Assembly (NCBI GenBank): GCA_027334565.1
Contig: DAHWUP010000002.1
Span: forward strand, 13,203 to 77,202
Length of the DNA stretch: 64,000 nt
Direction: 5' to 3'
Source of the DNA: Candidatus Levyibacteriota bacterium
Lineage (GTDB): Bacteria > Patescibacteriota > Microgenomatia > Levybacterales > UBA12049
A program made the translations under genes and the position numbers. The notes under the pieces are model-generated. The model saw only the letters and a list, made by a program, of their open reading frames with translations. It did not search any database and was not told the DNA's origin. Below, piece after piece: positions 26,319 to 45,103 of this stretch; position 1 is the first letter of the stretch; the number at the start of each line of letters is the position of its first letter.

Positions 26319-26957
26319 ATGCAAAGCGTGATCATCCTTGGTACAACCGAGAAAACCAGGGAGAAAGCAAATCAGATCCTTTCCGAATACAAAATCTCGA
26401 ATTTTGACGCTTCGGTCTTTTCCTCGGATAAGGCAATCGGAATTCCGGAAGTCAGACTCCTGCAAAAAAATATTTTTCTAAAACCGTTTGCGTCGGAAAA
26501 GAAAGCCGTGGTTTTGGAATGCTTTTGCGGCGTCACCGTCGACGCTCAAAACGCGTTTCTTAAAGTTTTGGAGGAGCCTCCGACAGACACTATTATAATG
26601 TTACTTGCCACAAGCCTTGATTTTATCTTACCGACGGTTTTATCAAGGTGCAATTTGATCGACCTGACAAGCAGAATACAGCAGTTGCCCAAACAACGTA
26701 AGGAAAATTTAGAACTGCTGGAATCATTGGTCTTTAGCGCGGAAAATCCCTTGCTGATCGCGCAAAACTACGGCAAATCCAAAGAATCTGCCCTCAAGAT
26801 ATTGGAAGAATTGATCACCGCTGCCGAAGAAAAAATGCAGACCGATCATTCGCTGGCAAAAACGCTGAAAGAGCTTCAAAAAACTTATACTATTATCAAA
26901 TCCACCAACGTTAATGTCCGTTTTGCCCTGGAAAACCTATTTTTAAATCTTAAATAA
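26319..26957 (+). CDS. holB: DNA polymerase III delta-prime subunit-like (short)
   Basis: AQNAFLKVLEEPP and LPTVLSRC are clamp-loader delta' motifs. Only 212 aa. Confidence 0.65.
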   Translation: MQSVIILGTTEKTREKANQILSEYKISNFDASVFSSDKAIGIPEVRLLQKNIFLKPFASEKKAVVLECFCGVTVDAQNAFLKVLEEPPTDTIIMLLATSLDFILPTVLSRCNLIDLTSRIQQLPKQRKENLELLESLVFSAENPLLIAQNYGKSKESALKILEELITAAEEKMQTDHSLAKTLKELQKTYTIIKSTNVNVRFALENLFLNLK

Positions 26958-26963
26958 CCGTCC

Positions 26964-27617
26964 TTAAGCGTTACGGCAATAGGAGAAAAGCGAAAAGACA
27001 TTCCCGAATCCTTTTGAGAATATGCCGTGCATTATGCAGGGAAGGAAATCATGCAACCTTATCATTGCCAGAAATCCCAAACCAATCACCAAAATGAAAA
27101 GGGTAGCAAAGTTATTTTTGACGAACTCAAGGCTTAACATTTTATTCTTACCGCGTTTATCTTTTACCAGCGAAACGATATTAAGTAAAACCGCCAGAAA
27201 AGGAAAGAACAACACCCAAGTAAAAAGCACAGGTGCCCGGTAAAGAAATGTATGGCTAAAAAAATTATACGATTGTTGATTAATATGCCCCAAGTTTCCC
27301 TGCGCGACCCTGCTTGAAAAATCAATGACGGACATCAATAAAATGGGCAAAAGAAGAACTGCTCCGGCGATATTAAAATTGTTAAGATGAAAATATTTTT
27401 TCATACCGACCTCTTGCATTTCGTATATATTCTCAAAAATAATACCTTTTGATAAATCCATTAACTGAAACGTCCAAAAACCGGCCCCGGCTTTTCCCTT
27501 GGCTCTCAACTCGTCATGATATAAATCCTCAAGATCCAAGAGTATTTGACTTTTGAATCTTTGCCGGTAGCTTTCGGGATAAAAACGGAGTAATTTTTTA
27601 TATATTTGTTCATACAT
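26964..27617 (-). CDS. PadR-associated integral membrane protein (hypothetical)
   Basis: Cytoplasmic N-domain (YPESYRQRF...LLDLEDLY) followed by about 4 TM helices. Overlaps the upstream padR stop by 8 nt (co-transcribed). Confidence 0.5.
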   Translation of the reverse strand: MYEQIYKKLLRFYPESYRQRFKSQILLDLEDLYHDELRAKGKAGAGFWTFQLMDLSKGIIFENIYEMQEVGMKKYFHLNNFNIAGAVLLLPILLMSVIDFSSRVAQGNLGHINQQSYNFFSHTFLYRAPVLFTWVLFFPFLAVLLNIVSLVKDKRGKNKMLSLEFVKNNFATLFILVIGLGFLAMIRLHDFLPCIMHGIFSKGFGNVFSLFSYCRNA

Positions 27618-27963
27618 AGCATAAGAAAAGTTTTAATGTTGCCGGATCTTCCAGGACATTGATCTTTTTTGCTCGATGAAGTGTTTCTTCATACCTTTGT
27701 AATTCGGACGAAAGATTTCTTCTGCCAAGCGACGTTAAGGTGTAATATTTTCTTCTGTCCTTTTCCCCGGCTTCTTTTACCCAACCGCTCTTAAGCATCC
27801 TTTTTATAGCGCCGTACAGCGTGCCCGGGCCCATGGCGACTTTCCCTTTTGAGTCGGTTTTGACCTGTTTCATGATATCGTAGCCGTGTCTATCCTTAAC
27901 CGCCAGAGAAAGGAGGATAAAAAGGACCTGTGGGGAAATAGAATCAATGGTTTTGCTATTCAT
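27610..27963 (-). CDS. PadR family transcriptional regulator
   Basis: Winged-helix region HGYDIMKQV...GPGTLYGAIKRMLKSGWV is the PadR signature. Confidence 0.85.
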   Translation of the reverse strand: MNSKTIDSISPQVLFILLSLAVKDRHGYDIMKQVKTDSKGKVAMGPGTLYGAIKRMLKSGWVKEAGEKDRRKYYTLTSLGRRNLSSELQRYEETLHRAKKINVLEDPATLKLFLCYV

Positions 27964-28024
27964 GCCTTTATTATATCACTTCGCGATATACTGTCAAGTC
28001 TACTAATATTTTCAAAAATTATGA

Positions 28025-28030
28025 TAGAAT
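28025..28030 (+). promoter_or_regulatory. -10 element TAGAAT 6 nt upstream of ATG 28037
   Basis: tagaat, then aatttt, then ATG. Confidence 0.4.
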
Positions 28031-28036
28031 AATTTT

Positions 28037-28243
28037 ATGAGCGCAGAAAATCTTGGTGAAAGGCCCCGAACCGCCTTGGAAATGTCCATACACTTGAGCA
28101 GATTATTGCCGCAAATGGGCATCCATCCCGAAGTGGCCCTTCATGAAGCACTTTTGCGGATGTCCGCTGAGAAAGAGCATGAACTGCCCTTTGAACGAAC
28201 ACAAACGGATGTTAACCAAAAAACCCGAAGCCCCGTGCTATAA
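28037..28243 (+). CDS. Hypothetical small protein (68 aa)
   Basis: ORF preceded by -10-like element. No recognisable domain. Confidence 0.3.
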   Translation: MSAENLGERPRTALEMSIHLSRLLPQMGIHPEVALHEALLRMSAEKEHELPFERTQTDVNQKTRSPVL

Positions 28244-28244
28244 T
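28236..28244 (+). promoter_or_regulatory. Extended -10 (TGcTATAAT) 7 nt upstream of GTG 28252; overlaps stop codon of preceding ORF
   Basis: tgctataat at 28236-28244, then tttccca, then GTG. Confidence 0.45.
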
Positions 28245-28251
28245 TTTCCCA

Positions 28252-29253
28252 GTGAGTAAAGCGGTGATCCCACATAAAGACGCAATTATCGATAAAGGTT
28301 CGTTCAGAAATGTAATGGCCCTTGCCCTTGATCCGTCAACACATTACAAAACCGGGCTCATCAGATGCATCACCAAAAGGACAGGCAAACTCCATGTCAG
28401 GGGCTATATCGATGAAAGCCTGCTGTATAAAGTTGAAAGAAGCGGCTTGGAACATTTTATAATCACCGACAGGTTAAAAATTGAAAATGAAAATGAATTG
28501 ATTAATAACTTAACCGGCGGCAGGAAGTTCTTGGGACTTGAGGATCCGGATATCTGGCTGGATGAAGAATCACAAAGGCTGCATGTTTATTACACCATTC
28601 CCTTTCTTGACGAAAACCGCAAAAAAACGGAGACCTACCTTGGCCACGCGGAAGGAAACGATTTGGATTCGTTAAAAATGACGGCGCCGCTTATTTCGCC
28701 CGATGCGCAAATCTCCCGCGCCAAAGAGGTTTCGATCGCTCCCAAAAATAGTCGGGGAGTGAGACTGAATTTAATTGAATCACGCGAAAGAAACGACACC
28801 ATCGATTATTCGACCGTACGCGTGGCGGTTGCCCCAAATCCTTCGGATAACTGGTCACTGGGGAATCTGGTGTTTCATCCAAAAACAAACGGTTACGATT
28901 GGTGCAGCGGCCACGCTTCGCCCGGTCCTATGTTTTCCAAAAATTTTATTGACGTCGGGAAGAACAAAGTGCTTGCGATACTAAACGGCCGCGAAAAAGA
29001 GGTCCGCAAAAACGGAAAAGCTTATTACGGAATGTTTTCGGTCGGACTGATGATCTATAACTTCGAAGAGGGTAAGATCGAATGGACCTCTAAGCAACCG
29101 CTTATTAAAGACCCAAACGCCAAAACTATCACTTTTGCCAGCCAGTTTGTGCAAACGAATGCAAATGAAGGAATTCTTTATGCACATATCGACGATTCAT
29201 TCGTGCGTGCATATACCCTCAGAGCCGATGGATTACGAAGTCTCCTACCGTAA
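28252..29253 (+). CDS. Hypothetical protein, 333 aa (possibly beta-propeller glycosidase-like; unverified)
   Basis: GTG start. Long ORF with clean codon structure. No motif I can assign with certainty. Confidence 0.5.
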   Translation: MSKAVIPHKDAIIDKGSFRNVMALALDPSTHYKTGLIRCITKRTGKLHVRGYIDESLLYKVERSGLEHFIITDRLKIENENELINNLTGGRKFLGLEDPDIWLDEESQRLHVYYTIPFLDENRKKTETYLGHAEGNDLDSLKMTAPLISPDAQISRAKEVSIAPKNSRGVRLNLIESRERNDTIDYSTVRVAVAPNPSDNWSLGNLVFHPKTNGYDWCSGHASPGPMFSKNFIDVGKNKVLAILNGREKEVRKNGKAYYGMFSVGLMIYNFEEGKIEWTSKQPLIKDPNAKTITFASQFVQTNANEGILYAHIDDSFVRAYTLRADGLRSLLP

Positions 29254-29300
29254 CTTTGTCAAAAATATCACGCGGGACAGGAAATGGTATAATTCCAACC

Positions 29301-29561
29301 ATGCCGATAGCAGAAACACTTAGTAACTCTTTACATAATCAGCTAAACCGCGAAGTTGCTACCGCTTCAATTTTCGGTCTGGGTGGTATCGCACTCACCG
29401 TAGCGGGTCTTGATACAACAATCCGCGGATTTGAACATCAGGATTTAATCGGAATAGGTTTCGGAACTTTCGAACTGCTTTTGGCGACCCAACCGGCAAC
29501 GGATTTTAGACAGCATCTCCGTGCTCTCAATGCAACCCCTCACACGAATGGAAAAAAATAA
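29301..29561 (+). CDS. Hypothetical small protein
   Basis: Start moved to ATG 29301 (MPIAETL...), which is preceded by TGgTATAAT at 29285-29293 plus 7 nt. Confidence 0.35.
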   Translation: MPIAETLSNSLHNQLNREVATASIFGLGGIALTVAGLDTTIRGFEHQDLIGIGFGTFELLLATQPATDFRQHLRALNATPHTNGKK

Positions 29562-29564
29562 TTT

Positions 29565-29816
29565 ATGAATCCTAAAGAAAGCTCAAAATTACAATTATTA
29601 AGAAGGATCGAACGTAACCCTCGCTCGGAACTCGGACAGACATTTCGCATGGTCAGAGATTTGCTGCAACAAACCGCAAGGGAACAAGATATGCTTGACG
29701 GGGGAAACGGCAGGACTTTTTACAGGTATACGCTCCGCGACGCTATCGACTTGGCCTGGGAAGAAGGGGAACCAAGCAACCTTAGTATCAGAAAATTATT
29801 CGATCAACCGCACTAA
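29565..29816 (+). CDS. Hypothetical small protein (83 aa)
   Basis: ORF only. Confidence 0.35.
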   Translation: MNPKESSKLQLLRRIERNPRSELGQTFRMVRDLLQQTAREQDMLDGGNGRTFYRYTLRDAIDLAWEEGEPSNLSIRKLFDQPH

Positions 29817-29865
29817 TCAGCTTATAGTAATATGGCTTGATTAGACTTAACCTTAACCCATGCGC

Positions 29866-29871
29866 TATAAT
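29866..29871 (+). promoter_or_regulatory. -10 TATAAT 6 nt upstream of ATG 29878
   Basis: tataat, then tcgcac, then ATG. Confidence 0.45.
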
Positions 29872-29877
29872 TCGCAC

Positions 29878-30087
29878 ATGCGGAGCTTGGAATCGATGGA
29901 AAGGGCAACCCCGGAGTTTCAATCACTTTCATTAGCGGAAAAATTCAAAAGGACCCGTGAACTTTCGCAGGTGCTTGAATTGATACTGAACCGTGAACTT
30001 CCTTTGGAAGGCGCTCAGGAAATTGTCTCAATCGCTCTGGAAAGACACCTGGCGGGAAGAGTCTTAAGACATAAATTAAAACCGTGA
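29878..30087 (+). CDS. Hypothetical small protein (69 aa)
   Basis: ORF with leaderless-type promoter. ORF track gives 29860. Confidence 0.35.
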   Translation: MRSLESMERATPEFQSLSLAEKFKRTRELSQVLELILNRELPLEGAQEIVSIALERHLAGRVLRHKLKP

Positions 30088-30165
30088 CCGCCGCGCTTTA
30101 AATAATGATTAATTTAGCAGTGTAAAACATATGTTAGAACAATGGACAAAATAACCGACAAAAGT

Positions 30166-30194
30166 TTGTTTATCACTCTTATCTAAGCTATAAT
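30166..30194 (+). promoter_or_regulatory. Promoter TTGTTT-N17-TATAAT, 6 nt before ATG 30201
   Basis: ttgttt at 30166-30171, tataat at 30189-30194, then cctctc, then ATG. Confidence 0.5.
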
Positions 30195-30200
30195 CCTCTC

Positions 30201-30728
30201 ATGCTTCAGATCAATTTTTATCCCGAATGCGATAATCCGGTCTTTGAAAAAGCCGCGGAAGAATACGGGCGTCTTTGGCACGAAGAAGAAGAAAGAATTG
30301 TTGCAACAATTGAGGAAGTAAGCGGATTAAAATTCAGGGAAACAATCATAAACGCAATTGTTTACGACAGATCCTCTTATTCAAAACCACTTAGCCTGGA
30401 AGCAAAACTTTCTAAAGATGATAAGAAAGAAGCATTGATTCATGAAATCTGTCATCGGTTACTGCTGGGCAATAAAATAAGGTGGGAAAAATTAAAAGGC
30501 AAACACGCTTCCTACTTGATATCCCATAAACCCTTGGATTTAATTCTATATGACATTCTTGTAAAACTATACGGAAAAAACTTTGCCAAAAAAAGTGTAG
30601 AAACCGAAATAAATGAATGGCAGAAATGGGGCGGGATCGGTGTAAGTCCTTATAAATTGGCCTGGGACTGGGCGCTGGCAATGAGCGGAGAAGACAGGCA
30701 AAGGGAATTCAAAAAATATTTGTTATAG
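30201..30728 (+). CDS. Hypothetical protein with HExxH motif (HEICH), putative minimal zinc metallopeptidase
   Basis: EALIHEICHRLLLGN contains HExxH. No other assignable domain. Confidence 0.45.
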   Translation: MLQINFYPECDNPVFEKAAEEYGRLWHEEEERIVATIEEVSGLKFRETIINAIVYDRSSYSKPLSLEAKLSKDDKKEALIHEICHRLLLGNKIRWEKLKGKHASYLISHKPLDLILYDILVKLYGKNFAKKSVETEINEWQKWGGIGVSPYKLAWDWALAMSGEDRQREFKKYLL

Positions 30729-30756
30729 ATATAGTATAGTAATTAATACGGAGGTA

Positions 30757-30785
30757 TTGACATTTTTATAGACCTCTAGTATAAT
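30757..30785 (+). promoter_or_regulatory. Perfect consensus sigma70 promoter TTGACA-N17-TATAAT, 6 nt before ATG 30792
   Basis: ttgaca at 30757-30762, 17-nt spacer, tataat at 30780-30785, then gtacgc, then ATG. Confidence 0.6.
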
Positions 30786-30791
30786 GTACGC

Positions 30792-31238
30792 ATGAAATTT
30801 TTTGAGAGACGGATTCCTGGAAGGGCGCAGGCGATAGCGGAGGAAATTGCGATATCCGAAGCTGTCCAGCCGGCACAACCGATTTACGTCTGGAAAGATG
30901 AAAGAAGCGAAGAGGAAGAAGAGCAACTACGACTGGCCGCTCTTAACCACAGTTATGCCTCAACATTGATTGGCGAATTAAACGGACACCCACAGGTTGA
31001 AGTCGAAAATCCGGACTCCTGGTATCCTAATGTATATATCCATGACGAACGCTTTCCCGATGACGTTCATTACCGCATCGGATTTGTAGGCAGGTTAGAC
31101 GGGGGAGTTACCATCGGACACATTGATTTAAACCGAAGACAGGCTATAGACCCTCAACTGGTAACAAACGCGTTCAATCAGGCGCGTGAAACAGCCGAAC
31201 CGATCTTCGGAAAACTTCGATTAGACGCTAATCGATAA
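30792..31238 (+). CDS. Hypothetical acidic protein (148 aa)
   Basis: ORF plus consensus promoter. Confidence 0.45.
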   Translation: MKFFERRIPGRAQAIAEEIAISEAVQPAQPIYVWKDERSEEEEEQLRLAALNHSYASTLIGELNGHPQVEVENPDSWYPNVYIHDERFPDDVHYRIGFVGRLDGGVTIGHIDLNRRQAIDPQLVTNAFNQARETAEPIFGKLRLDANR

Positions 31239-31304
31239 ATAGACCGTAAAAAACACCCCTACACAACAATTATTTAAAACACAAAATGATATAATACTCA
31301 CTTA

Positions 31305-31634
31305 ATGTTAAGCGAAAGTGAACCAACGCTAAGATTGATACGGGGTGGCGTCAGCGGTTTGGAAAATGAACTTACCAACGGCCTATATTCCGTCAAGGTG
31401 GTCAGATCGCCGCTTGGCCGGACCGTAAGCGATACCGGCACAACCATTATCGGTAGGAGTCAGGGAGTTTCAATAACCGTAGAAACGGACGGTAAAACAG
31501 TCCACGAAGAACGGGTTTATCCGGTCTTTACAAGCATAAGAGACAGATTCGGTATCGAAGTTAAAAAACCGTTTTATGACGAAAGAATTGTACTGGCACA
31601 AAACAGAGCGGTACGGATTGCCTCGAAACTTTAG
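31305..31634 (+). CDS. Hypothetical protein (109 aa)
   Basis: ORF. TGaTATAAT at 31287-31295 lies upstream. Confidence 0.4.
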   Translation: MLSESEPTLRLIRGGVSGLENELTNGLYSVKVVRSPLGRTVSDTGTTIIGRSQGVSITVETDGKTVHEERVYPVFTSIRDRFGIEVKKPFYDERIVLAQNRAVRIASKL

Positions 31635-31783
31635 TTCTTACCCTGATATTCTGCTTTGAAGTCAACGGTGATATAATAACTCCATGCCAGAGCAAGGGGT
31701 CGAAAGATCAAGGGGACCTGCGTTTTTGGAAAGAATCGAATATGCTTTTGTTCATCTGATCTTGGAAAGGACCGTTAAGTTTC

Positions 31784-32011
31784 ATGGCAAATTTTGAATC
31801 CGAAAACAAAATCACTTTAAGAAATGTGGGCAACAAAAACTTACAAGAGGCGTATAGAGCTGTCGCTTCGGTTCTCCTGAAAGAACTCCCTCATGCAAAA
31901 TTCTTTAGAGAAGGGCTTGATGACGCCGATGTCAGAAATTCCGAGCTTGGAATATGGGCGATACAAAAAGCCGGAAATTTCGGTTCTTCCCGTACCGGAG
32001 TAATTTCGTAA
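31784..32011 (+). CDS. Hypothetical small protein (75 aa)
   Basis: ORF only. Confidence 0.3.
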   Translation: MANFESENKITLRNVGNKNLQEAYRAVASVLLKELPHAKFFREGLDDADVRNSELGIWAIQKAGNFGSSRTGVIS

Positions 32012-32018
32012 CGCAAAT

Positions 32019-32047
32019 TTGGTTTTGTAATCTGTCTTCGCTATAAT
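32019..32047 (+). promoter_or_regulatory. Promoter TTGGTT-N17-TATAAT, 6 nt before ATG 32054
   Basis: ttggtt at 32019-32024, tataat at 32042-32047, then ccgcat, then ATG. Confidence 0.5.
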
Positions 32048-32053
32048 CCGCAT

Positions 32054-32599
32054 ATGCAAACTTATGAAGTCGAATTAAGAGCATTTATTTCCAAAACGCA
32101 ATACACGAATCTTCTTAAAAAATTCGGTTCGCTATCAAAAGGAGAACAGGATAATGCTCGTACCTACACTTTTGTGACATCGGATATCAACATAAAGGTC
32201 AAAAACCTGATTTCAAGGAAAAAGGCGAAAATCACCGTCAAAAATGGCGCTGAGTACAGACAGGACGTCAAAGAAACGGAGCTTGAAATCGATCCCAAAA
32301 ATGTTTTAAAAGCCGTTGAGTTAGTCAAGGCCATCACGGGATTCAAACAATTCATACCGAGTTTTCAAAAACGCATCAACTTTATGATCAACGGCATTGC
32401 AGTTTCCGTAAAAAACGACACACACTGGAAATATCACGTCGAGGCCGAAATACTGGTAAAAAACAAAAAGGAAATTCCTGCCGCTAAAAAGAAGTTGAGA
32501 AAGTTTTTTGAAGGATACGGACTTAAACCCGAAAGCGAAAAAAATTTAAGAAAAAAAATAAATCATTACATATCAAAGTATGGTTTTAAAAAAATATAG
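32054..32599 (+). CDS. Hypothetical Lys-rich protein, possibly CYTH-like (triphosphate tunnel metalloenzyme) fold
   Basis: N-terminal MQTYEVELRAF resembles the CYTH ExExK/R motif. The 181-aa size fits CYTH. Weak support. Confidence 0.4.
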   Translation: MQTYEVELRAFISKTQYTNLLKKFGSLSKGEQDNARTYTFVTSDINIKVKNLISRKKAKITVKNGAEYRQDVKETELEIDPKNVLKAVELVKAITGFKQFIPSFQKRINFMINGIAVSVKNDTHWKYHVEAEILVKNKKEIPAAKKKLRKFFEGYGLKPESEKNLRKKINHYISKYGFKKI

Positions 32600-32649
32600 C
32601 GCTTGAGAAATATTCGACAACCCTTGGCAACTGAGGTATAATTTCCGAC

Positions 32650-33099
32650 ATGGAAAGTGAAGCGCGCATCGTCGATGTTATCCAAACCCATGGGAAAATA
32701 CACGTTTATTCGACCGTAGACTATGGTGATGGAGAATCACATAGAAGCGAACCAACGCCTTACCCCTCGTTCGAAACAGCCGAACAGCAGCTCGGAAACG
32801 AAATCAAAGACTCCTCGGTAAAACAGGATATCTATCGCAATTTAAAAAAAGTTGAAGCGGCGGCTTTTGGATTGATAGTGTTAAAAGACCTGATTACAAC
32901 CCAGATGAGTAACAGAGCCGACACGGATTTAATTCCCATCATCTCGGTGGCCGGGATATTCGTATTTACCAATATTGTCGATGCATTCAACAGCAACCGA
33001 CTGGTTTCGTCAAGACAAGAATACGCTGCAGTGGTTGAAGCCAAGGATAAAAACCTAGTCCAATATGAAAGGGTCTTTCCGCTTTATGATGAAGAATAA
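32650..33099 (+). CDS. Hypothetical protein (149 aa)
   Basis: ORF. TATAAT at 32637-32642 lies 7 nt upstream. Confidence 0.4.
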   Translation: MESEARIVDVIQTHGKIHVYSTVDYGDGESHRSEPTPYPSFETAEQQLGNEIKDSSVKQDIYRNLKKVEAAAFGLIVLKDLITTQMSNRADTDLIPIISVAGIFVFTNIVDAFNSNRLVSSRQEYAAVVEAKDKNLVQYERVFPLYDEE

Positions 33100-33186
33100 A
33101 TTACCAATCGGGAAAAGTACCCCCGTAATATTTGAAATTTAAACAGTTTATTTGATATTTTTTATTTTTTTGCTACAATTTGCGTC

Positions 33187-33630
33187 ATGGCTTTACTTGA
33201 AGCGGGCAGATTCAAAGAACAACCTATCCCCATAGTAACCGACAGAGAACGGGAAATTCCCCATGACCTTATCGATCCTGATTACTCCGACAAAAGATTC
33301 GTAGAATCGAGCGCGGCAACCACAGTCTTTTTGGATCCCGGATCCCGGACGGTGACCAGTATGGGCTTGGAATTCGTTCCCGGCGCCCACTACGAATATG
33401 ACGACAGACTGTTGCAGAAAAACCACGAAGCTTATCAGAAAGCCTGGGAAAAGGCTTCCGAGCTGACAGACGGAACCAGAAATGCCCGCTTTTATGAGGA
33501 ATTTCTAAGGACTTTATATCAAAATCCCCATACGAAACTGGTACATATCTTAACTGGTATCAACCGGGGCAACGGTTTTTCGTACCGGGCTTTTGGAACA
33601 ATAGATACATCGATACAGCCCCAACAATAA
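33187..33630 (+). CDS. Hypothetical protein (147 aa)
   Basis: ORF. TGcTACAAT at 33171-33179 lies 7 nt upstream, with TTGATA at -35. Confidence 0.4.
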   Translation: MALLEAGRFKEQPIPIVTDREREIPHDLIDPDYSDKRFVESSAATTVFLDPGSRTVTSMGLEFVPGAHYEYDDRLLQKNHEAYQKAWEKASELTDGTRNARFYEEFLRTLYQNPHTKLVHILTGINRGNGFSYRAFGTIDTSIQPQQ

Positions 33631-33731
33631 ATAATTACGGTAATATTTTGAAGATGGAAAAACCTATGTTTTAGAAAAAAATTTTGGCCGGAAAAGTTGG
33701 CAGGATAAAAAATAAACCGGTTTTTATCGAC

Positions 33732-34484
33732 TTAAGAGGGTTTAAAGTGATCTTTCCAGTCTTTTGGCCCAAACTGCCCGAACGGACGGCCGGTAAGATG
33801 GGCCAACATCTCTTCTTCGCTTACGCCCATCGCCTGAAGCTGTCCGACCCTATGCTTTGCCAAATGATGAAGTTTGCCGGGATCTTCACCCTCCATCCAA
33901 TAGTCATCAACGTCCAAATAATACTTCATAAAAAGTGCGGCAAAGGCGTCCGCTTTCATCTCTTCGAATATGGTTTCCTCAATGTGCTCTCCCAGCGAAT
34001 GTCCGTATTCGTGGGCCAGAATCTCCATAACATCTTCATGTTCGACCTGGGTGGTATCTTTGCCGAACCCCAATCTTATCCTGAATCCTACCGGCAACCT
34101 GGTCAAGTCACCGGCAATTCCGTTAAGTATATAGGGGCCGTATTTTCTGACCAAAGCCAGCTGATCTTCGGGAAGCTTGGGTATCATTTTACTTGCGGGA
34201 ATAAAATATATTTCGCGGTCGTCTAAGGGAAGCTCCACACCGGTGAGCCCGCTTATCTGTCCGATCGTATCCCTGTACTCGGCGATGACATTCCTTCTTG
34301 ACCAGGGTCTTATTCCTTCCACGATTTCTTCTTGGGAATCGGTGGTCTGATTGTTGTTTAAAACCTCATCATTAGAATCGTTGATAACATCCATTCCTCT
34401 TTTCCTAAACAAGGAAAAGGTCCTCGGGCTTCTTGGAGCCCTCGGCGCTGTAAATTTAACGCCTTCGAAATATCTTTCTTTCAT
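33732..34484 (-). CDS. Putative zinc metallopeptidase (HEYGH motif; ImmA/IrrE-like)
   Basis: ILAHEYGHSLGEHIEE fits the HExxH...H pattern of M78 (ImmA/IrrE) peptidases. Chosen over the overlapping antisense ORF 33684..34226. Confidence 0.55.
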   Translation of the reverse strand: MKERYFEGVKFTAPRAPRSPRTFSLFRKRGMDVINDSNDEVLNNNQTTDSQEEIVEGIRPWSRRNVIAEYRDTIGQISGLTGVELPLDDREIYFIPASKMIPKLPEDQLALVRKYGPYILNGIAGDLTRLPVGFRIRLGFGKDTTQVEHEDVMEILAHEYGHSLGEHIEETIFEEMKADAFAALFMKYYLDVDDYWMEGEDPGKLHHLAKHRVGQLQAMGVSEEEMLAHLTGRPFGQFGPKDWKDHFKPS

Positions 34485-34585
34485 AAATGCGAATTATAGC
34501 GCATTTTCGGGCAAAATTAAAACTTAGAATTGTTTGCATTTTACGGTTCCAAAGAGTATAAAAATAATATATCAGATAAAATCAC

Positions 34586-36031
34586 ATGTTTGGTTCATTT
34601 AATAAATGGTTTAATAAACCAAGAACTAACCAGTTAGGGTTTTTAATCATATTTTTCTTCTTTTTAATTTACCTGACCTTGTCCCTGGTAACCCATTTTC
34701 ATTTTTTATCCGGATATGACCTTGCGATAGTTAACCAATATGTTTATGAGTGGTCGCATTTTAAAATTCCCGTATCAACGGTAAGCGCTTATCCGTTTTT
34801 GCCTTTTTATACCGACCATATCGAACTCATATTCATGCTTCTTTCTCCTTTTTACTGGATTTATCCCAACGCCGTCACTTTGCTTGTTTTGCAGGCCTTT
34901 TTTATGGCGCTTTCCGGTATCGCCGTTTTGTTTCTTTGCCAAAGATACAAGATCAATTCGTTTCTTACCTTGTCCATTTTGACCTCCTACCTGTCTTTTT
35001 ACGGCATCCAGTTCGCTGTTTATTACGATGCGCACAGTCTGGTTTTTGGGGCCGCATTCCTGGCTTTTTTTATATATTTTCTGGATAAAAATTCAAGATG
35101 GTCCATTTTGTTTTTTCTTCTAGCGGTTACGTCAAAAGAGGATATCGCGCTCCTGACGCTTTTGCTCTCTTTTATTGTTTTTGCCGTCAAAAGGACCAAG
35201 CTGAGTTTTTATTTCATGCTCGGTTCGGTACTTTACTTGATTATGATCTTTATGGTCATTTTCCCGCATCTTGCCCAAGGATTCGGGGCGCAAAAGCAAA
35301 AAAATATAAACTTCGACCCTAGAAACTTCGTCAATACCGGGACAAAAATCGAGGTGATAGGCTATTCGCTGGGGTGGTTCGGTTTGCTGCCCTTGTTTTT
35401 GCCTTTATATCTTATTCCGTTCTTAGGCGACCTGTTCCATTATTTTGTGCTGGGTGAAGCGGTATCAACCGCGCAGGGCTTTTACTATCATTACCGGGTG
35501 ACCATCGCCATCTTGCTCACCTATCCGACTATCTTGGTTATAAGCAAGTCAAAAATCCTTAACCGAAGATACACCGGCTTATATCTTCTTCTGTGTGCGC
35601 TACTTTTTACTTATTTGATCCACGCGCCATTTACTTACCTTGCAAAAAAATGGTTCTGGACAAAGCCCCGCTCGGCCGGTGAGATCACCAAAGTATTGGC
35701 GTATCTGCCGAACAACGCTTCGGTTGTAGCACAAAACAACATTACATCACATATTTCAAACCGGATGAATGTTTTTACTCTCTGGCCGGATAAAAGAACA
35801 TTCAAAACCGGTTCGCCCTGCCAAAAACCGGTCTGTGACTGGTTTAAGTGGTCCGGAAACCCGCAATATCTGGTCGTTGATACGTCTACCGCTTGGGATG
35901 CCCGCTTTTTTTTAACCGACAGGCAAAGTTTTATTTTAGGACTTGACAACATGGAAAAAGAAGGGATCATTAAAAAGTATGTACAGGCGGACACTTCGGT
36001 TTTGTATAAGATTCAAAAACCTCCGTATTGA
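34586..36031 (+). CDS. Polytopic membrane protein, DUF2079 / GT-C-fold glycosyltransferase-like
   Basis: About 11 predicted TM helices in the N-terminal 350 aa plus a C-terminal soluble domain. Architecture and size match DUF2079-type membrane proteins. Confidence 0.5.
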   Translation: MFGSFNKWFNKPRTNQLGFLIIFFFFLIYLTLSLVTHFHFLSGYDLAIVNQYVYEWSHFKIPVSTVSAYPFLPFYTDHIELIFMLLSPFYWIYPNAVTLLVLQAFFMALSGIAVLFLCQRYKINSFLTLSILTSYLSFYGIQFAVYYDAHSLVFGAAFLAFFIYFLDKNSRWSILFFLLAVTSKEDIALLTLLLSFIVFAVKRTKLSFYFMLGSVLYLIMIFMVIFPHLAQGFGAQKQKNINFDPRNFVNTGTKIEVIGYSLGWFGLLPLFLPLYLIPFLGDLFHYFVLGEAVSTAQGFYYHYRVTIAILLTYPTILVISKSKILNRRYTGLYLLLCALLFTYLIHAPFTYLAKKWFWTKPRSAGEITKVLAYLPNNASVVAQNNITSHISNRMNVFTLWPDKRTFKTGSPCQKPVCDWFKWSGNPQYLVVDTSTAWDARFFLTDRQSFILGLDNMEKEGIIKKYVQADTSVLYKIQKPPY

Positions 36032-36079
36032 TTTGGCTTTGTAAACGAAAAAGTTTGAGGGATTTAGCCGTTGGGCATA

Positions 36080-36107
36080 TTGACAACGCCTTAACTATTT
36101 GTATAAT
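36080..36107 (+). promoter_or_regulatory. Promoter TTGACA-N16-TATAAT, 6 nt before ATG 36114
   Basis: ttgaca at 36080-36085, tgtataat at 36100-36107, then cctaac, then ATG. Confidence 0.55.
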
Positions 36108-36113
36108 CCTAAC

Positions 36114-36584
36114 ATGGCAGAGATATTAAGAAGAACTCTTGGTTCCGACCTCCACGAACCCTTACCCGGCTCACCCAAACCTCCGCGAATCGACGCGAAG
36201 CTGGAAAGATTATTCGAGAAAGCAGATTCGGCAGAAGCCGAAGGCCTTGAAGACACACCACGCAGGTTTCGTCTGGCTGCCGCAGGCGCATTGGAAAGAT
36301 ACGAGTCATTCCGTCCCGTAAATCCCGATGAGCAAGTTTTGCAGGCCGAATACGGAGATATGGCGCTAAGAGGTTATCTTGGGGCTGGTGATACCGAAGA
36401 AGCCGTAGACCTTGCGGAAAGATTAGCAAAATCGGCACCCAGTGCACATTATTTTGAAAGAGTAACAAAAAGACTGCAACTCGCAGATCCGAGTTTGTTA
36501 AACGAACTTTTAAGAAGAAGGGAAGCCGTGCGCCGTTCGTTTGAAGATTTCCATCTTACACTACATTCTAAACCCGTAAAATAA
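36114..36584 (+). CDS. Hypothetical Ala/Arg/Glu-rich helical protein
   Basis: ORF downstream of a consensus promoter. ORF-track start 36099 overlaps the -10. Antisense ORF 36109..36468 judged spurious. Confidence 0.4.
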   Translation: MAEILRRTLGSDLHEPLPGSPKPPRIDAKLERLFEKADSAEAEGLEDTPRRFRLAAAGALERYESFRPVNPDEQVLQAEYGDMALRGYLGAGDTEEAVDLAERLAKSAPSAHYFERVTKRLQLADPSLLNELLRRREAVRRSFEDFHLTLHSKPVK

Positions 36585-36630
36585 CTTCAAGCAAATTCGA
36601 ATCCAAAGCCGGAAGTGGTATAATTTTTTT

Positions 36631-37227
36631 GTGGCCAACGACCTGGTGAAACAAAGTTACGAAAAAGTAGCGAAAGACTATGTCTCAAAACGGGATCAGT
36701 TCAAAAGTTTAAAATATCTGGAACGGTTTTCGCAGCTGGTCAAACAGGGAGGTGCAATTCTGGACGTTGGCTGCGGCGCAGGCCTTCCCGTCGATAGATT
36801 TCTGATAAAAAAGGGTTTTTCCGTAAACGGATTGGATATTTCGCCAAAAATGGTAAAGCTTGCAAAGCGGAATGTCCCGCAGGCTTTTTTCGAAGTCAAA
36901 GACATGTCAGAACTTAATAAAGGAGAGTATCGCGTTGACGGAATCGTTTCTTTTTATGCCATATTCCACATTGGAAGAGAACAGCATCAGGATCTTTTGA
37001 AAAAATTTGCATCTTTCATGCCAAACGGAGGACCTATACTCGTGACAATGGGGGCAGAAGAATGGGAGGGGACGGAAGAAAACTTCCATGGAGAAAAAAT
37101 GTTCTGGAGTTTCTACGGAAAAGAGAAAAACAGAAAACTTTTGGAAAACGCGGGATTTAAAATTTTATCGGATGAAATCGATACTTCTGGCAACGAAAGA
37201 CACCAGATAATTATTGCCAAAATTTAA
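36631..37227 (+). CDS. Class I SAM-dependent methyltransferase
   Basis: Motif I ILDVGCGAGLP and motif II/III spacing typical of the Methyltransf_11/25 family. GTG start preceded by TGgTATAAT at 36616-36624. Confidence 0.8.
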   Translation: MANDLVKQSYEKVAKDYVSKRDQFKSLKYLERFSQLVKQGGAILDVGCGAGLPVDRFLIKKGFSVNGLDISPKMVKLAKRNVPQAFFEVKDMSELNKGEYRVDGIVSFYAIFHIGREQHQDLLKKFASFMPNGGPILVTMGAEEWEGTEENFHGEKMFWSFYGKEKNRKLLENAGFKILSDEIDTSGNERHQIIIAKI

Positions 37228-37265
37228 TCTCCGAGGCTGAAAGTGTTATAATTAAAAAAGCTTCC

Positions 37266-38003
37266 ATGAGACGGAGGAAAATTAAACAAACTACTAAATC
37301 CTCGATAAAAGCCGGCGTAAATATTGTTCTCTTGGCATTATTAATTTTAATATTTATTTTTTACCTTGTATTTACTTACCAAAAACAAATATTTGGGATT
37401 GCTGGAATTTCAAACAGCAAAACTGACAATTTTACTCAAAAGATAGAAGACTTAAAATTTATATCACCGTCTCCAACTAGAACCCCAACACCGACACCGA
37501 CACCAATAATTAACAACTACCAAAATAATGGACAGACAAATAATCTTAATGCACAATGGGGCGTTGCTAAACAAACGGGTTCGGATACTTGGTCGCAACA
37601 AATAGGTTGTGATAACAAAATGGGCACACCTGATGATGTTTTTCAGGCGTTAAATAATTATAGGCACGTACACAACGTTGGTGGGCTAACTTGGAATGAT
37701 AATTTGGCTGCGGAAGCACAATCCAGAGCGGATTATTTTAATTCGATTGGTAAAATTGATGATCACGTTGGACTAAATGATTTTCTAAATAACCAAAACG
37801 GATTTAATAAATTAGGATTTGGATACGTTGGAGAAAATTCTTCATTGGGACAATGTCCATTACTAGGAGTCCACATAATCGAATGGATTTTTGCTTCAGA
37901 TCAACCTCATAACGCAAATCAATTAAATCGCGATTGGGGTTATGTTGGAGTAGGTGTAAGTGGTTATGCTGTTGATTTAATCTTCGGCGCAGATAAATAT
38001 TAA
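37266..38003 (+). CDS. Membrane-anchored CAP/SCP (PR-1-like) domain protein with Thr-Pro linker
   Basis: N-terminal TM helix, TRTPTPTPTP linker, CAP motifs (HNVGGLTWNDNLA..., GENSS, WGYVGVG). Confidence 0.65.
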   Translation: MRRRKIKQTTKSSIKAGVNIVLLALLILIFIFYLVFTYQKQIFGIAGISNSKTDNFTQKIEDLKFISPSPTRTPTPTPTPIINNYQNNGQTNNLNAQWGVAKQTGSDTWSQQIGCDNKMGTPDDVFQALNNYRHVHNVGGLTWNDNLAAEAQSRADYFNSIGKIDDHVGLNDFLNNQNGFNKLGFGYVGENSSLGQCPLLGVHIIEWIFASDQPHNANQLNRDWGYVGVGVSGYAVDLIFGADKY

Positions 38004-38015
38004 CTAATCTGAAAA

Positions 38016-38024
38016 TGCTATAAT
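38016..38024 (+). promoter_or_regulatory. Extended -10 TGcTATAAT 6 nt upstream of GTG 38031
   Basis: tgctataat, then ccagtc, then GTG. Confidence 0.45.
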
Positions 38025-38030
38025 CCAGTC

Positions 38031-38507
38031 GTGGAGACAAAACGGTGGATTAATTTTTTAAAAAGGATTCCTAGCATCTTAAAGCAACTTGCTTCTTTAA
38101 CTAATGGGCGAATGTGGTTGGACGCGGAAAGGAATTTTTTTGAATACAATAAATCAATAATAACACTTGCATCATCTGCCTTAGTATTATCATTTACTGC
38201 AGCTAAAATTAGTAATTTACACACCAACCTAATAACACTTGCAATAAGTTGGGTTGGTTTTATTATAACCATATTTTTCGGACTATCAATCCAGCTAATG
38301 AACTTTCTCTATTCTCTTGCTGAAAGCAATATCCATAAGCTTTCAGAAGATAAAGTGTTTAAGTCAGAAAACCTTAAGAATCCAGAGGTTGGATTTTACT
38401 GGGAAGCTAGAATTGTTATGTTTTGGATATCAATTTTTGAAATGTTTTTATTTATTTTATCATTAGTTTTTTTAATGATATCAGCGTTCCTTACAATCAG
38501 TTATTAA
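38031..38507 (+). CDS. Hypothetical membrane protein (about 4 TM helices)
   Basis: Hydrophobic segments. No recognisable domain. Confidence 0.4.
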   Translation: METKRWINFLKRIPSILKQLASLTNGRMWLDAERNFFEYNKSIITLASSALVLSFTAAKISNLHTNLITLAISWVGFIITIFFGLSIQLMNFLYSLAESNIHKLSEDKVFKSENLKNPEVGFYWEARIVMFWISIFEMFLFILSLVFLMISAFLTISY

Positions 38508-38613
38508 AATGATTATGGATGCGGAAATAACCACCAGAAAATTAGTTCTTCGAGGAACGATCAGGTAAAAACAATTGAAATAAAATTCTCATTGAGTATA
38601 ATAGACAACTATT

Positions 38614-38952
38614 ATGCCTCCGTATGAGTGCCCGGAGAGGGGCGCAAGATTCAACGCAAGGTTTATAAGAATCGGCGAAAAACTTTACTCGGGAAAAAAT
38701 ATACATGAAACCCACGGCCATATCGCGGAAATGGACCATCTTAAACAGGCGATCGGGGACTTAAAACGTGTAAATTCAGCCGAAGTGGACGGAGGAATAT
38801 ATCATGCAACAAGTGACGGTCAGATACTGATAATCGGAAATTCCGCGACATTTGATATTCCCGTTAGTGGTGTTAAGAGGCTTGCGCGCGAACTGACAAA
38901 GGAAGCATTTCAGGCGCAAAGCCCCGGCCGCGAGGTAATTATCATTAAATAA
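38614..38952 (+). CDS. Hypothetical protein (112 aa)
   Basis: ORF only. Confidence 0.35.
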   Translation: MPPYECPERGARFNARFIRIGEKLYSGKNIHETHGHIAEMDHLKQAIGDLKRVNSAEVDGGIYHATSDGQILIIGNSATFDIPVSGVKRLARELTKEAFQAQSPGREVIIIK

Positions 38953-38998
38953 ATTCAATTTGGGCGCTGGAAATTTACCGTTCGGTTTGTTAAAATAG

Positions 38999-40975
<1,977 letters not shown>

Positions 40976-40992
40976 CTGATATAATTAATGGC

Positions 40993-41727
40993 ATGTTCTA
41001 CAATGCTCATGCTTATGTCGCAGGGAAAATCTTTGGTTCCGACGACAAGCTTTTGCTGACCGGTAGTTTTCTTCCCGATATCGCAGTACTTAAAATTATC
41101 GACTGGGACAAAAGCGGCATGCACGGAAGGGAAGCCGCTAAAAGATTTAAGGATTACATTGAAAAACATCACTCCGACTACCTTAGCCTTGCCAAAGGTG
41201 TTATCGCGCATAATATTCTTGATGATTTCAGCCATTTCGATTATAACGGCGGCAAGGGCTATGCCTACATCAATAACAAAGAACTGGTAAAAAAAACTTC
41301 CCAATATTATGGAGACGACGGAAAATTAGGCCTTCGCAAAGCTCATAATTTTATCGAATCCGCCGTTGATATCCTGTTACTTCAGAAACAGAGCGACATC
41401 TATACGAAAATCGTTGACGCAACCGAAAAGGTGGATAAAAACGCACTGGCTAAGGTCGTCGGAGAATTCTTTGGCATCGACGAATCGAAAACAGAGCAAA
41501 CCTTAACCGAATATTTTGCACTGATCAACTCGCATGATCTTTGTAATAAGAATAACTGGATTTTTCTATGGCAGAAGCTAAATAAGCTGATGGGACTTAG
41601 AAATCTTGAGGATAAACAGATACTCGATCTTCTCGATACGGGAATTGCCTCGGTAACCCCGACCTTTACCCAATTTATGGATTTTGCGCTTACGGAAGGC
41701 ACAAAGAGAAAAGATGCTTATGTTTAA
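40993..41727 (+). CDS. Hypothetical protein; possible Zn-dependent PLC / S1-P1 nuclease-like fold
   Basis: N-terminal NAHAYVAG and HNILDDFSH resemble the His/Asp Zn-ligand pattern of the S1-P1 / phospholipase C superfamily. Weak support. Confidence 0.4.
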   Translation: MFYNAHAYVAGKIFGSDDKLLLTGSFLPDIAVLKIIDWDKSGMHGREAAKRFKDYIEKHHSDYLSLAKGVIAHNILDDFSHFDYNGGKGYAYINNKELVKKTSQYYGDDGKLGLRKAHNFIESAVDILLLQKQSDIYTKIVDATEKVDKNALAKVVGEFFGIDESKTEQTLTEYFALINSHDLCNKNNWIFLWQKLNKLMGLRNLEDKQILDLLDTGIASVTPTFTQFMDFALTEGTKRKDAYV

Positions 41728-42286
41728 AGACCCTGTCTTGAAAAAACTTTATAAAAAATACGGTCCGCATAAGTTCGAGGACAGAAGCGAACGGCTGATG
41801 GAAGAACTGGTCGAAGCTATCATCAGTCAGCAACTTTCCAATAAAGCTTCCGATACTATATATAAAAGGTTCCTGGACCTTTTTAAGGGTAAGTTTCCCA
41901 AGCCGGATGAAATATTGTCAATGGACGACGAAAAATTAAGAAGCGCCGGAATGAGCTATTCGAAAGTCAAATATATCAAAAATATCGCCGCGGCATTTAA
42001 AAACGGCGATTTGAATATCAATAAGATTAGCAAAATGTCCGACGATGAAGTTATCGAAGAGCTTACTAAAATCAAAGGGGTAGGGAGGTGGACCGCGGAA
42101 ATGATCCTGATATTTACCCTTAAACGGGAGGATATATTTTCTTTGGGCGACGCGGGTCTTAAAAAAGCGGTTAAAAATTTATATAATCTTGAAAAAGAAA
42201 CGGAAATACTAAAACTGTCTAAGAGCTGGAAACCGAAAAGAAGCTATGCCTGCTGGTATTTATGGAGAAGTTTAGAGAATGATTAA
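41717..42286 (+). CDS. HhH-GPD DNA glycosylase (AlkA / 3-methyladenine glycosylase II-like)
   Basis: LTKIKGVGRWTAEMILIFTL...LGDAGLKKAV is the HhH-GPD motif with catalytic Asp. Start set at ATG 41717, overlapping the upstream stop. Confidence 0.7.
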   Translation, partial: LMFKDPVLKKLYKKYGPHKFEDRSERLMEELVEAIISQQLSNKASDTIYKRFLDLFKGKFPKPDEILSMDDEKLRSAGMSYSKVKYIKNIAAAFKNGDLNINKISKMSDDEVIEELTKIKGVGRWTAEMILIFTLKREDIFSLGDAGLKKAVKNLYNLEKETEILKLSKSWKPKRSYACWYLWRSLEND

Positions 42287-42860
42287 AGTGATTGCTTTCG
42301 ATTTTGCGGACGTTATCGTCGAGGGGCCCGTATCGGGATGGCTTAAAAAAAACAGGTCGGAAAACACAAAAGCCGATTGGCATGAATATAAACAGAAGGC
42401 ACATCTTTGGGATACCGGTCAAATGGATTCAAAAGCGGTTTATGAATTTCTTTCAAAACTTACCGGGATAGACGAGGAAGCCATCTGGAAAGAACTTTAC
42501 GAAACCGCTCATTTGAATGTGGAGCTGGTAGAGCTTATAAAAAGGCTCAAGCCAAGCTATAAAATCGCCATTTTTTCCAACTACATTTCAGAACAACTGA
42601 AAAAACTGCTGGTTCACCACAAAATCGATAAACTATTCGACGAAGTGATAGTTTCTTCCGAACACGGCGTTAAAAAACCCGACCCAAAATTTTTTGAAGC
42701 TTTGGTGACAAAAGCGGGAGTCAACAAAGACGAAATATTTTTTACCGACGACAATCTTGACAATATAGAAGCCGCTTCTACCTTTGGTATTAAAGCTTAT
42801 CGTTTTACAACAGTTGGCAAATTAATCGAGGATCTGCAAAAAGAAGGGATTAACGTTTAA
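42279..42860 (+). CDS. HAD superfamily hydrolase (subfamily IA)
   Basis: Motif I VIAFDFADVIV (DxD) and motif IV FTDDNLDNI. Confidence 0.8.
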   Translation: MIKVIAFDFADVIVEGPVSGWLKKNRSENTKADWHEYKQKAHLWDTGQMDSKAVYEFLSKLTGIDEEAIWKELYETAHLNVELVELIKRLKPSYKIAIFSNYISEQLKKLLVHHKIDKLFDEVIVSSEHGVKKPDPKFFEALVTKAGVNKDEIFFTDDNLDNIEAASTFGIKAYRFTTVGKLIEDLQKEGINV

Positions 42861-42914
42861 ACACGAATAAGTCTTGAAAATAAGCTTAACCTTCTTTATA
42901 ATTGAAAGGTTCTT

Positions 42915-44954: not shown

Positions 44955-45103
44955 ATCAGCAATTGCGAAGGTTGCCTTGGTATAAGACGGAACCCCCGCA
45001 AAATTTTTTCAAAATTCGTCAGAATTTTGAAGAGGAGTAAACAGCCGCTCGGCCGAAATTTAAGCTATGCTTAAACGAAGGCAAAGGGCTGAATTAAGAC
45101 GAC

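Follow-up and report, generated by a model that had tools for sequence, protein, structure and literature searches.

What kind of locus is formed by the run of short open reading frames (ORFs) that lies between a gene for a PadR regulator and a gene for a DUF2079 membrane protein in Candidatus Levyibacteriota? The run occupies positions 28037-34484 of the window, i.e. of the whole 64,000-nucleotide (nt) stretch of DNA that was analysed. An earlier note on this DNA had read it as a defence, toxin-immunity or effector island, possibly an undescribed system. The layout was confirmed: twelve ORFs, of 68-333 amino acids (aa), lie on the plus strand and a single one, of 250 aa, on the minus strand (referred to as i01 to i13), and the motifs singled out in that note are present in the translations, namely HEICH in the ORF at 30201 (i06), EVELR, of the ExExR type, at 32054 (i10) and HEYGH at 33732 (i13). 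As to its nature, we consider it likely that the block is the core of an accessory region, hypervariable and 12 kb long, whose genes are unrelated and independently expressed and do not make up one system. The cargo would comprise an enzyme with a GH130-like fold, another of CYTH-like type, a zincin peptidase and about 10 small proteins without detected relatives, of which two have a single membrane segment. No new system is revealed; the locus provides leads for annotating the 'dark matter' of the candidate phyla radiation (CPR) and leaves current understanding unchanged.

The gene order is as follows: a type IV pilus operon, pilC-pilT-pilB, on the minus strand; holB; the PadR gene and a gene for a protein with three transmembrane (TM) segments, both on the minus strand; the 13 ORFs; then DUF2079 and further genes up to gyrB. 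The left conserved anchor is holB (DNA polymerase III delta'; 26319-26957, plus strand; Pfam DNA_pol3_delta2, E=4.9e-21), whose orthologs adjoin pilB in 59 related loci. The right conserved anchor is gyrB (39005-40975, plus strand; Pfam DNA_gyraseB, Toprim and HATPase_c). The 13-ORF block is part of the 12-kb variable stretch that extends between them, from 26958 to 39004. Relatives were anchored on PilB and included metagenome-assembled genomes labelled Candidatus Levyibacteriota, then Gottesman-, Shapiro-, Woese- and Amesbacteria, which places the source of the window, itself a genome assembled from a metagenome, among the CPR/Microgenomates bacteria. The distance from holB to gyrB is 30-530 bp in about 20 Microgenomates loci, 0.3-8 kb in the Levybacteria relatives and 12 kb here. 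Neither tblastn nor phmmer detected any gene of the 26964-38952 interval in the loci of the closest Levybacteria relatives. Over 14 genomes, the gap contains 101 ORFs, with 77 families present at a single locus and 10 common to several loci.

Two further Levybacteria-like contigs, L086 and L096 (L087 is a shorter copy of the latter), were reached via i13 homologs. The gap of L086 has i13, p112 and p161 (a 112-aa and a 156-aa ORF located downstream of the block) in common with the window, its remaining genes being different; that of L096 and its shorter copy has i13 alone. Both carry an i13 homolog without any of i01-i12, so that i13 is the only one of the 13 block genes that recurs at the Levybacteria hot spot. 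The variable presence among relatives that the earlier note had raised as a point for comparison was confirmed: where the closest relatives have their holB-gyrB junction, no block gene was found, and only i13, a recurrent resident of the hot spot, recurs in the two further contigs. The block is the core of a hypervariable accessory region, and the holB-gyrB junction constitutes a concrete gene-turnover hot spot in a CPR lineage.

Another way to account for these absences is that the small ORFs are mostly old, fast-evolving genes of the lineage, in which case the region would be less accessory, or that some of them are not genes. HolB is 43-47% identical in the nearest relatives, a distance at which proteins of 70-150 aa could escape detection, and i13, p112 and p161 are recognisably common to the window and L086. 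Yet the length of the gap spans about 30 bp to 12 kb among loci, which implies that the number of genes truly differs; such differences are real whatever the divergence of the relatives. As for the suspicion that some ORFs are not genes, strain variants offer only weak evidence for constraint: over 5.5 kb they show 21 non-synonymous and 12 synonymous single-nucleotide polymorphisms (SNPs), a sample too small to demonstrate selection. Against it stand a codon score that is best in the annotated frame and promoters placed exactly at the starts (see below). On balance, this explanation in either form is unlikely.

A codon-usage model, for which 17 backbone genes with a clear family match or a large size served as the training set, was used to assess the coding character of the block, all six frames being compared. 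The score was highest in the annotated frame for 13 of 13 ORFs, with values of 0.12-0.31 bits per codon versus 0.17-0.40 in the training genes. GenBank assembly GCA_021832785.1 also contains this DNA, on contig JAKBIG010000003.1, as do two further assemblies made from metagenomes. Two strain variants show 5 SNPs over 20 kb and 37 SNPs over 5.5 kb, and no ORF acquires an indel or a stop codon. The 13 ORFs look like real genes with host-adapted codon usage. No paralogy was found among their products. That several of these would be strongly acidic was an overstatement: the isoelectric point is 4.8-5.5 in four of them (including i13) and above 8 in seven.

How are these genes expressed? On the plus strand, between 27990 and 33700, there are 10 perfect TATAAT boxes for 3.1 expected (P=0.0015). 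Nine of these have their end 6-9 nt upstream of an ORF start; the ORFs concerned are eight of the block and an extra one of 37 aa (see below). A start-adjacent perfect TATAAT is found for 9 of the 13 block ORFs, a count that uses the re-assigned starts 29301 and 29878, versus 6 of the 60 genes in the rest of the window (Fisher P=2.6e-5). Once TAGAAT (ORF at 28037) and TACAAT (ORF at 33187) are included, 11 of the 13 ORFs possess a -10 box of their own. The two others (29565 and 31784) abut or overlap the preceding ORF, and such coupling would explain that they have no promoter. Within the block a perfect -35 is associated with a perfect -10 at 30757-30785 only. The proposal of a separate near-consensus promoter for almost every ORF, 6-7 nt from the start codon, therefore stands for the -10 box, with a somewhat wider spacing; it does not extend to the -35 box, nor are start-adjacent boxes specific to the block, since 36 of the 73 ORFs of the window have one (at least 5 of 6 consensus positions).

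Upstream of the window genes, Shine-Dalgarno (SD)-like motifs are at background level (6 genes out of 73, versus 8.9% of random positions). A sharp 6-nt peak marks the TATAAT-to-ATG spacing of the window and also that of 12 Levybacteria loci and of 53 other Microgenomates loci; in eight non-CPR loci, which make a weak control, TATAAT is rare (12 in 131 kb) and never at the 6-nt spacing. The L086 gap displays one TATAAT-N6-8-ATG arrangement per ORF. Throughout, a start-adjacent -10 box is almost absent from tightly coupled genes (1 of 18) and frequent in genes whose upstream neighbour is more than 40 nt away (15 of 31).

From this pattern, the lineage as a whole appears to express its genes without leaders and with few SD sites. 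A sigma-70-type -10 box ending 6-7 nt before the start codon would place the first transcribed nucleotide on that codon or beside it, and the resulting mRNA would be leaderless. The lineage would make little use of SD sites and rely on leaderless initiation or on translational coupling, and an uncoupled gene would need its own promoter at its start codon. The presence of one promoter per ORF would then follow from the block being a run of unrelated, uncoupled singleton genes under a leaderless regime; more generally, such a mode of expression would account for runs of unrelated genes each with a consensus promoter. The independent leaderless expression suggested at the outset fits the pattern. 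Our literature search for leaderless expression in CPR bacteria returned no relevant paper.

The position of the -10 boxes also bears on start codons, some of which would not be those of the longest ORF or of the database annotation, as it implies revised starts for i03 (29301), i05 (29878) and the 156-aa ORF (36114). For i02, the GTG start at 28252 is backed by the -10 position and by the coverage of the N-terminus in all homologs, while the ATG chosen by NCBI lies 63 nt downstream. These data indicate that the NCBI start of this 333-aa protein is 21 codons too late and that standard callers misplace several starts here.

If the genes of the block are accessory, did they arrive as a decayed prophage, an integrative element or an integron-like cassette array inserted at holB-gyrB? 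The location in a hot spot, the content that is different in each genome and the many short ORFs without detected relatives would suit such an origin. The expected hallmarks were looked for, with the following results. Family scans gave no integrase or transposase domain and the window contains no tRNA; no flanking direct repeat and no recurring repeat, attC-like elements included, was found beyond the promoter boxes; Rfam gave no match from 26 to 40 kb at E<=0.1. Matches to PHROGs were insignificant (E of at least 0.02), tblastn with the pooled 13 proteins against 50,697 phage and 72,556 plasmid records gave none, and no relatives of i02, i06, i07, i10, i11 and i12 were found in IMG/VR. In addition, the G+C content of the block is unremarkable and its composition and codon usage are host-like. 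An inserted element of this kind is thus highly improbable, and the initial statement that there are no structural phage genes agrees with the PHROGs, phage and IMG/VR searches.

The same searches bear on the idea that the 13 genes make up a single undescribed system (for defence, toxin-immunity or effectors) whose peptidase-like and CYTH components would act together. In its favour one can cite the accessory nature of the block and its place in a hot spot, the occurrence of two HExxH proteins and a CYTH-like protein, the adjacent PadR regulator and the 18-nt motif, a possible operator with palindromic ends, found in front of i05, i10 and i13. With PADLOC-DB 2.0, which was run on 10 ORFs (the three shortest left out), the only match was peptidase_U41, at E=0.014 and 12.9 bits over the HExxH motif, which is insignificant; as said above, PHROGs, phage, plasmid and IMG/VR sets added nothing significant. 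None of the proteins has an N-terminal hydrophobic segment of signal-peptide type (no signal-peptide predictor was used). The genes appear monocistronic and their order is conserved nowhere; relatives with i13 at the same site lack i01-i12. Moreover, relatives of i02 and i13 occur singly, in unrelated contexts, and no part of the block was found to co-occur in another genome; there is nothing by which the 13 genes would be tied into one system. We regard a single system as very unlikely, and there is no positive support for a single defence or toxin system made of a subset of the genes. Taken together, the profile and structure comparisons, which the earlier note had named as a check, gave a GH130-like fold for i02, a borderline CYTH match for i10 and a zincin for i13, and no significant defence match among the 10 ORFs scanned; a set of unrelated, independently expressed accessory genes remains the reading we prefer.

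The 18-nt motif, ATGCGCTATAATTCGCAT, deserves separate treatment. It has 3 matches for 0.06 expected: an exact one on the minus strand at 34487-34504 (i13 promoter), one with 1 mismatch on the plus strand at 29860-29877 (i05 promoter) and one with 3 mismatches on the plus strand at 32036-32053 (i10 promoter). The i05 and i13 promoters have 17 identical nt (ATGCGCTATAATTCGCA), forming an exact inverted repeat (I11), and the i10 promoter is similar. The ends of the motif are palindromic, ATGCG-N8-CGCAT. It may be a common operator or a duplicated promoter. It was not found upstream of the i13 homologs of L086 or L096. PadR operators of the form ATGT-N8-ACAT are known; since the motif is unlike it in spacing and is absent at these two homologs, PadR as the binder of ATGCG-N8-CGCAT is only speculation.

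Several points weigh against a region of wholly unrelated and independent genes. First, the motif common to the i05, i10 and i13 promoters hints at some co-regulation and not at complete independence. Second, perfect-consensus promoters are present in front of 13 of the 21 genes of the variable region versus 2 of the 52 backbone genes (P=1.9e-7), an excess of which operon structure accounts for only part. Third, the nearest relatives are distant, as the HolB identity indicates, and some absences may be divergence past recognition. Fourth, remote homologs of i01, i03-i09, i11 and i12 were not searched exhaustively, and hidden links among these genes are possible. A bolder proposal can be made: holB-gyrB of Levybacteria would be a dedicated site accumulating self-contained single-gene cassettes (a consensus -10 box 6-7 nt before the ATG plus an ORF) without integrase or att repeats, a nursery or exchange point for orphan host-interaction or defence proteins of episymbionts, with i05, i10 and i13 co-regulated through the 18-nt operator. 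We hold this to be quite doubtful.

The products of the block differ in how much can be said of them. They had been called lineage-specific, which does not apply to the two largest, i02 and i13. The i02 gene (28252-29253, plus strand; GTG start 7 nt after TGcTATAAT; 333 aa) has more than 1000 homologs with 50-60% identity and 100% query coverage, almost all of them without a Pfam domain; those with a name are labelled Patescibacteria, Paceibacterota or Parcubacteria, and their neighbourhoods are unrelated to this block. None of 49 family members matched Pfam, and the family profile had no match among PDB sequences at E<=10. The AlphaFold2 model of i02 (pLDDT, the predicted local distance difference test score, of 94.4) is a five-bladed beta-propeller with a GH130-like fold: in a Foldseek search of the PDB, mannoside phosphorylases of the GH130 type, together with related mannosyltransferases, make up the top 30 or so matches (E down to 6e-12, TM-score about 0.7), with 8-16% sequence identity. 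The family has an invariant E97-D98-P99-D100 motif. Judging from the model, i02 probably acts on sugar phosphates or glycosides. A fusion to a NUDIX domain is seen in one homolog, P0063 (474 aa), a hint of sugar-nucleotide chemistry. This family, GH130-like in fold, with its more than 1000 members, widespread in Patescibacteria and devoid of a Pfam model, merits characterisation.

The minus-strand gene, i13 (33732-34484; TATAAT 8 nt upstream), codes for a 250-aa protein of which a word-indexed search detected two homologs only. An exhaustive profile search raised this number to 72 cluster representatives, almost all with a length of about 250 aa. In 65 sequences of the family, H158, E159, G161, H162, E175 and H206 are invariant, i.e. 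HEYGH...E175...H206 in i13 itself. The protein had been thought to resemble ImmA/IrrE; however, neither i13 nor any of the 65 members matched Peptidase_M78 (PF06114), and no Xre-type helix-turn-helix (HTH) partner stands beside it, its neighbours being i12 (no HTH-family match) and DUF2079. Although i13 itself passed no Pfam threshold, 11 of the 65 members gave a weak match to Peptidase_M48, other weak matches being to M10 and M12, and the fold test placed i13 among the zincins. By its sequence features, i13 is a metallopeptidase-like protein of the gluzincin-type zincins, nearer M48 and the gluzincins than ImmA/IrrE, and a predicted peptidase. Residues 1-20 (consensus M.E.YFP...F......P) are conserved and modelled with a pLDDT of about 85, and residues 22-46 are disordered; in the model this N-terminal segment may dock on the catalytic domain in a propeptide-like manner.

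Elsewhere, relatives of i13 stand alone beside NUDIX or PsiE genes, or in a contig of archaeal type. In the latter (L090/L091, ENA ERZ930069/70), which also carries PCNA, Hjc and an archaeal-type primase, the gene lies at 10001-10768 of L090. From these gene contents, the family looks like one common to CPR bacteria and an apparent archaeon, possibly of the DPANN group. A small zincin family of ultra-small prokaryotes without a Pfam model, and with a member in an archaeal-type contig, merits characterisation as well.

The other HExxH protein, i06, is a 175-aa orphan (30201-30728, plus strand; TATAAT 6 nt upstream). Protein families, PDB, a metagenome pattern scan and viral sets gave no relatives of it. 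It was also considered as a paralog of i13 and rejected, the similarity being at the level of the motif only (hhalign probability 8.5%). A PDB sequence search with i02, i06, i07, i11, i12 and i13 found nothing significant.

The CYTH-like N-terminus noted at 32054 belongs to i10 (32054-32599, plus strand; 181 aa; TATAAT 6 nt upstream). Here the idea gained a full-length alignment to Pfam CYTH (PF01928), with E=5.5e-4, and stopped short of the Pfam threshold, with 20.3 bits against a gathering threshold of 23.2. Residues 4-159 match PDB 2een (PH1819) at E=1.2e-4, and NCBIfam cyaB is matched at E=0.003. The N-terminus reads E5-V-E7-L-R9, in which Arg replaces the Lys of ExExK, and aligns with YEVELK of PH1819. 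On this borderline match, i10 is a probable CYTH/triphosphate tunnel metalloenzyme domain protein.

The ten remaining small ORFs, i06 included, gave no significant match to Pfam, and the seven that were scanned against NCBIfam, PADLOC and PHROGs gave none there; their 90%-identity clusters have 1-2 members each (1 for i01). Those not yet described are all on the plus strand. The 68-aa orphan i01 (28037-28243) has its best codon score in frame and a TAGAAT 6 nt before the ATG. The start of i03 (29301; 86 aa, one predicted TM segment), which NCBI also calls, has a TATAAT 7 nt upstream, and i04 (29565-29816; 83 aa), without a promoter, begins 3 nt past i03; the two are probably a coupled pair. 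The 69-aa orphan i05 (29878-30087) has a TATAAT 6 nt before its ATG at 29878, and a longer version starting at 29860 is probably wrong. The perfect TTGACA-17-TATAAT promoter mentioned above (30757-30785) serves i07 (30792-31238; 148 aa), and i08 (31305-31634; 109-aa orphan) has a TATAAT 9 nt upstream. The extra 37-aa ORF (31684-31797), with a TATAAT 6 nt upstream, is called as a gene on the Logan contig L002; it overlaps by 14 nt the start of i09 (31784-32011; 75 aa), which lacks its own promoter, and here also a coupled pair is probable. Orphans i11 (32650-33099; 149 aa, one predicted TM segment) and i12 (33187-33630; 147 aa) have, 7 nt before the ATG, TCGACA-17-TATAAT and TTGATA-16-TGcTACAAT, respectively.

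Two oddities should be mentioned. A 180-aa ORF on the plus strand at 33684-34226 is almost certainly no gene: it runs antisense to i13, and over this stretch it has a codon score of 0.13, versus 0.32 on the i13 strand. In one strain-variant contig, L093 (ENA ERZ27233560 k141_912741), window position 29968 is joined to the reverse complement of 31319-31210, through either a chimeric assembly or an inversion within the block.

On the left of the block, the gene for the 217-aa membrane protein (26964-27617, minus strand; three segments by TM prediction) overlaps the PadR gene (27610-27963, minus strand; Pfam PadR, E=1.2e-16), and neither has a counterpart in the loci of relatives. Over 27970-27997 lies the divergent PadR promoter, a perfect TTGACA-16-TATAAT with a TG in front of it; the palindrome within its spacer, ATATC-N7-GATAT (27965-28000 region), is plausible as a candidate autoregulatory operator. 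On the right, the plus-strand genes up to gyrB are, with Pfam assignments where a family is given: the DUF2079 membrane protein (34586-36031), p161 (36114-36584), an S-adenosylmethionine (SAM) methyltransferase (36631-37227), a CAP-domain protein (37266-38003), a weak 8xMP-like membrane protein (38031-38507) and p112 (38614-38952). In 3 of these 6 genes (34586-38952) a perfect TATAAT is found 6 nt before the start. Further on, the gyrB/gyrA interval (window 40993-47572) contains a gene for a Zn-dependent phospholipase C-like protein, two small ORFs and a membrane H+-pyrophosphatase gene.

How does the locus compare with known systems? Like genomic islands and plasticity zones, it is flanked by core genes (holB and gyrB), its content differs from genome to genome and its cargo is mostly without known function; unlike them, it has neither an integrase nor a tRNA, its flanks carry no repeat, its composition is not anomalous, and nearly every gene has its own start-adjacent -10 box. 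With the cassette arrays of integrons it has in common that short, unrelated single genes are densely packed on the same strand at one site. It differs from them by the absence of integrase and attC-like repeats and by a promoter for each gene, where integron cassettes are typically promoterless. At the level of single proteins, i10 departs from the CYTH, class IV adenylate cyclase and triphosphate tunnel metalloenzyme group by a score below the Pfam threshold and by the Lys to Arg change in the signature, and joins it by a full-length alignment and the N-terminal ExEx. In the same way, i13 differs from M48 peptidases, gluzincins and minigluzincins in being soluble, about 250 aa long and provided with a conserved YFP...F segment at the N-terminus, and has like them the invariant HExxH with a downstream Glu. 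The likeness of i02 to the GH130 beta-mannoside phosphorylases is one of fold, with no match at the sequence level; it consists in the five-bladed beta-propeller of the model. Lastly, leaderless expression is established in Actinobacteria, Deinococcus-Thermus and archaea. Here it would concern a CPR/Microgenomates lineage; what the two have in common is a -10 element of the TANNNT type placed 6-7 nt before the start codon, together with no enrichment in SD sequences.

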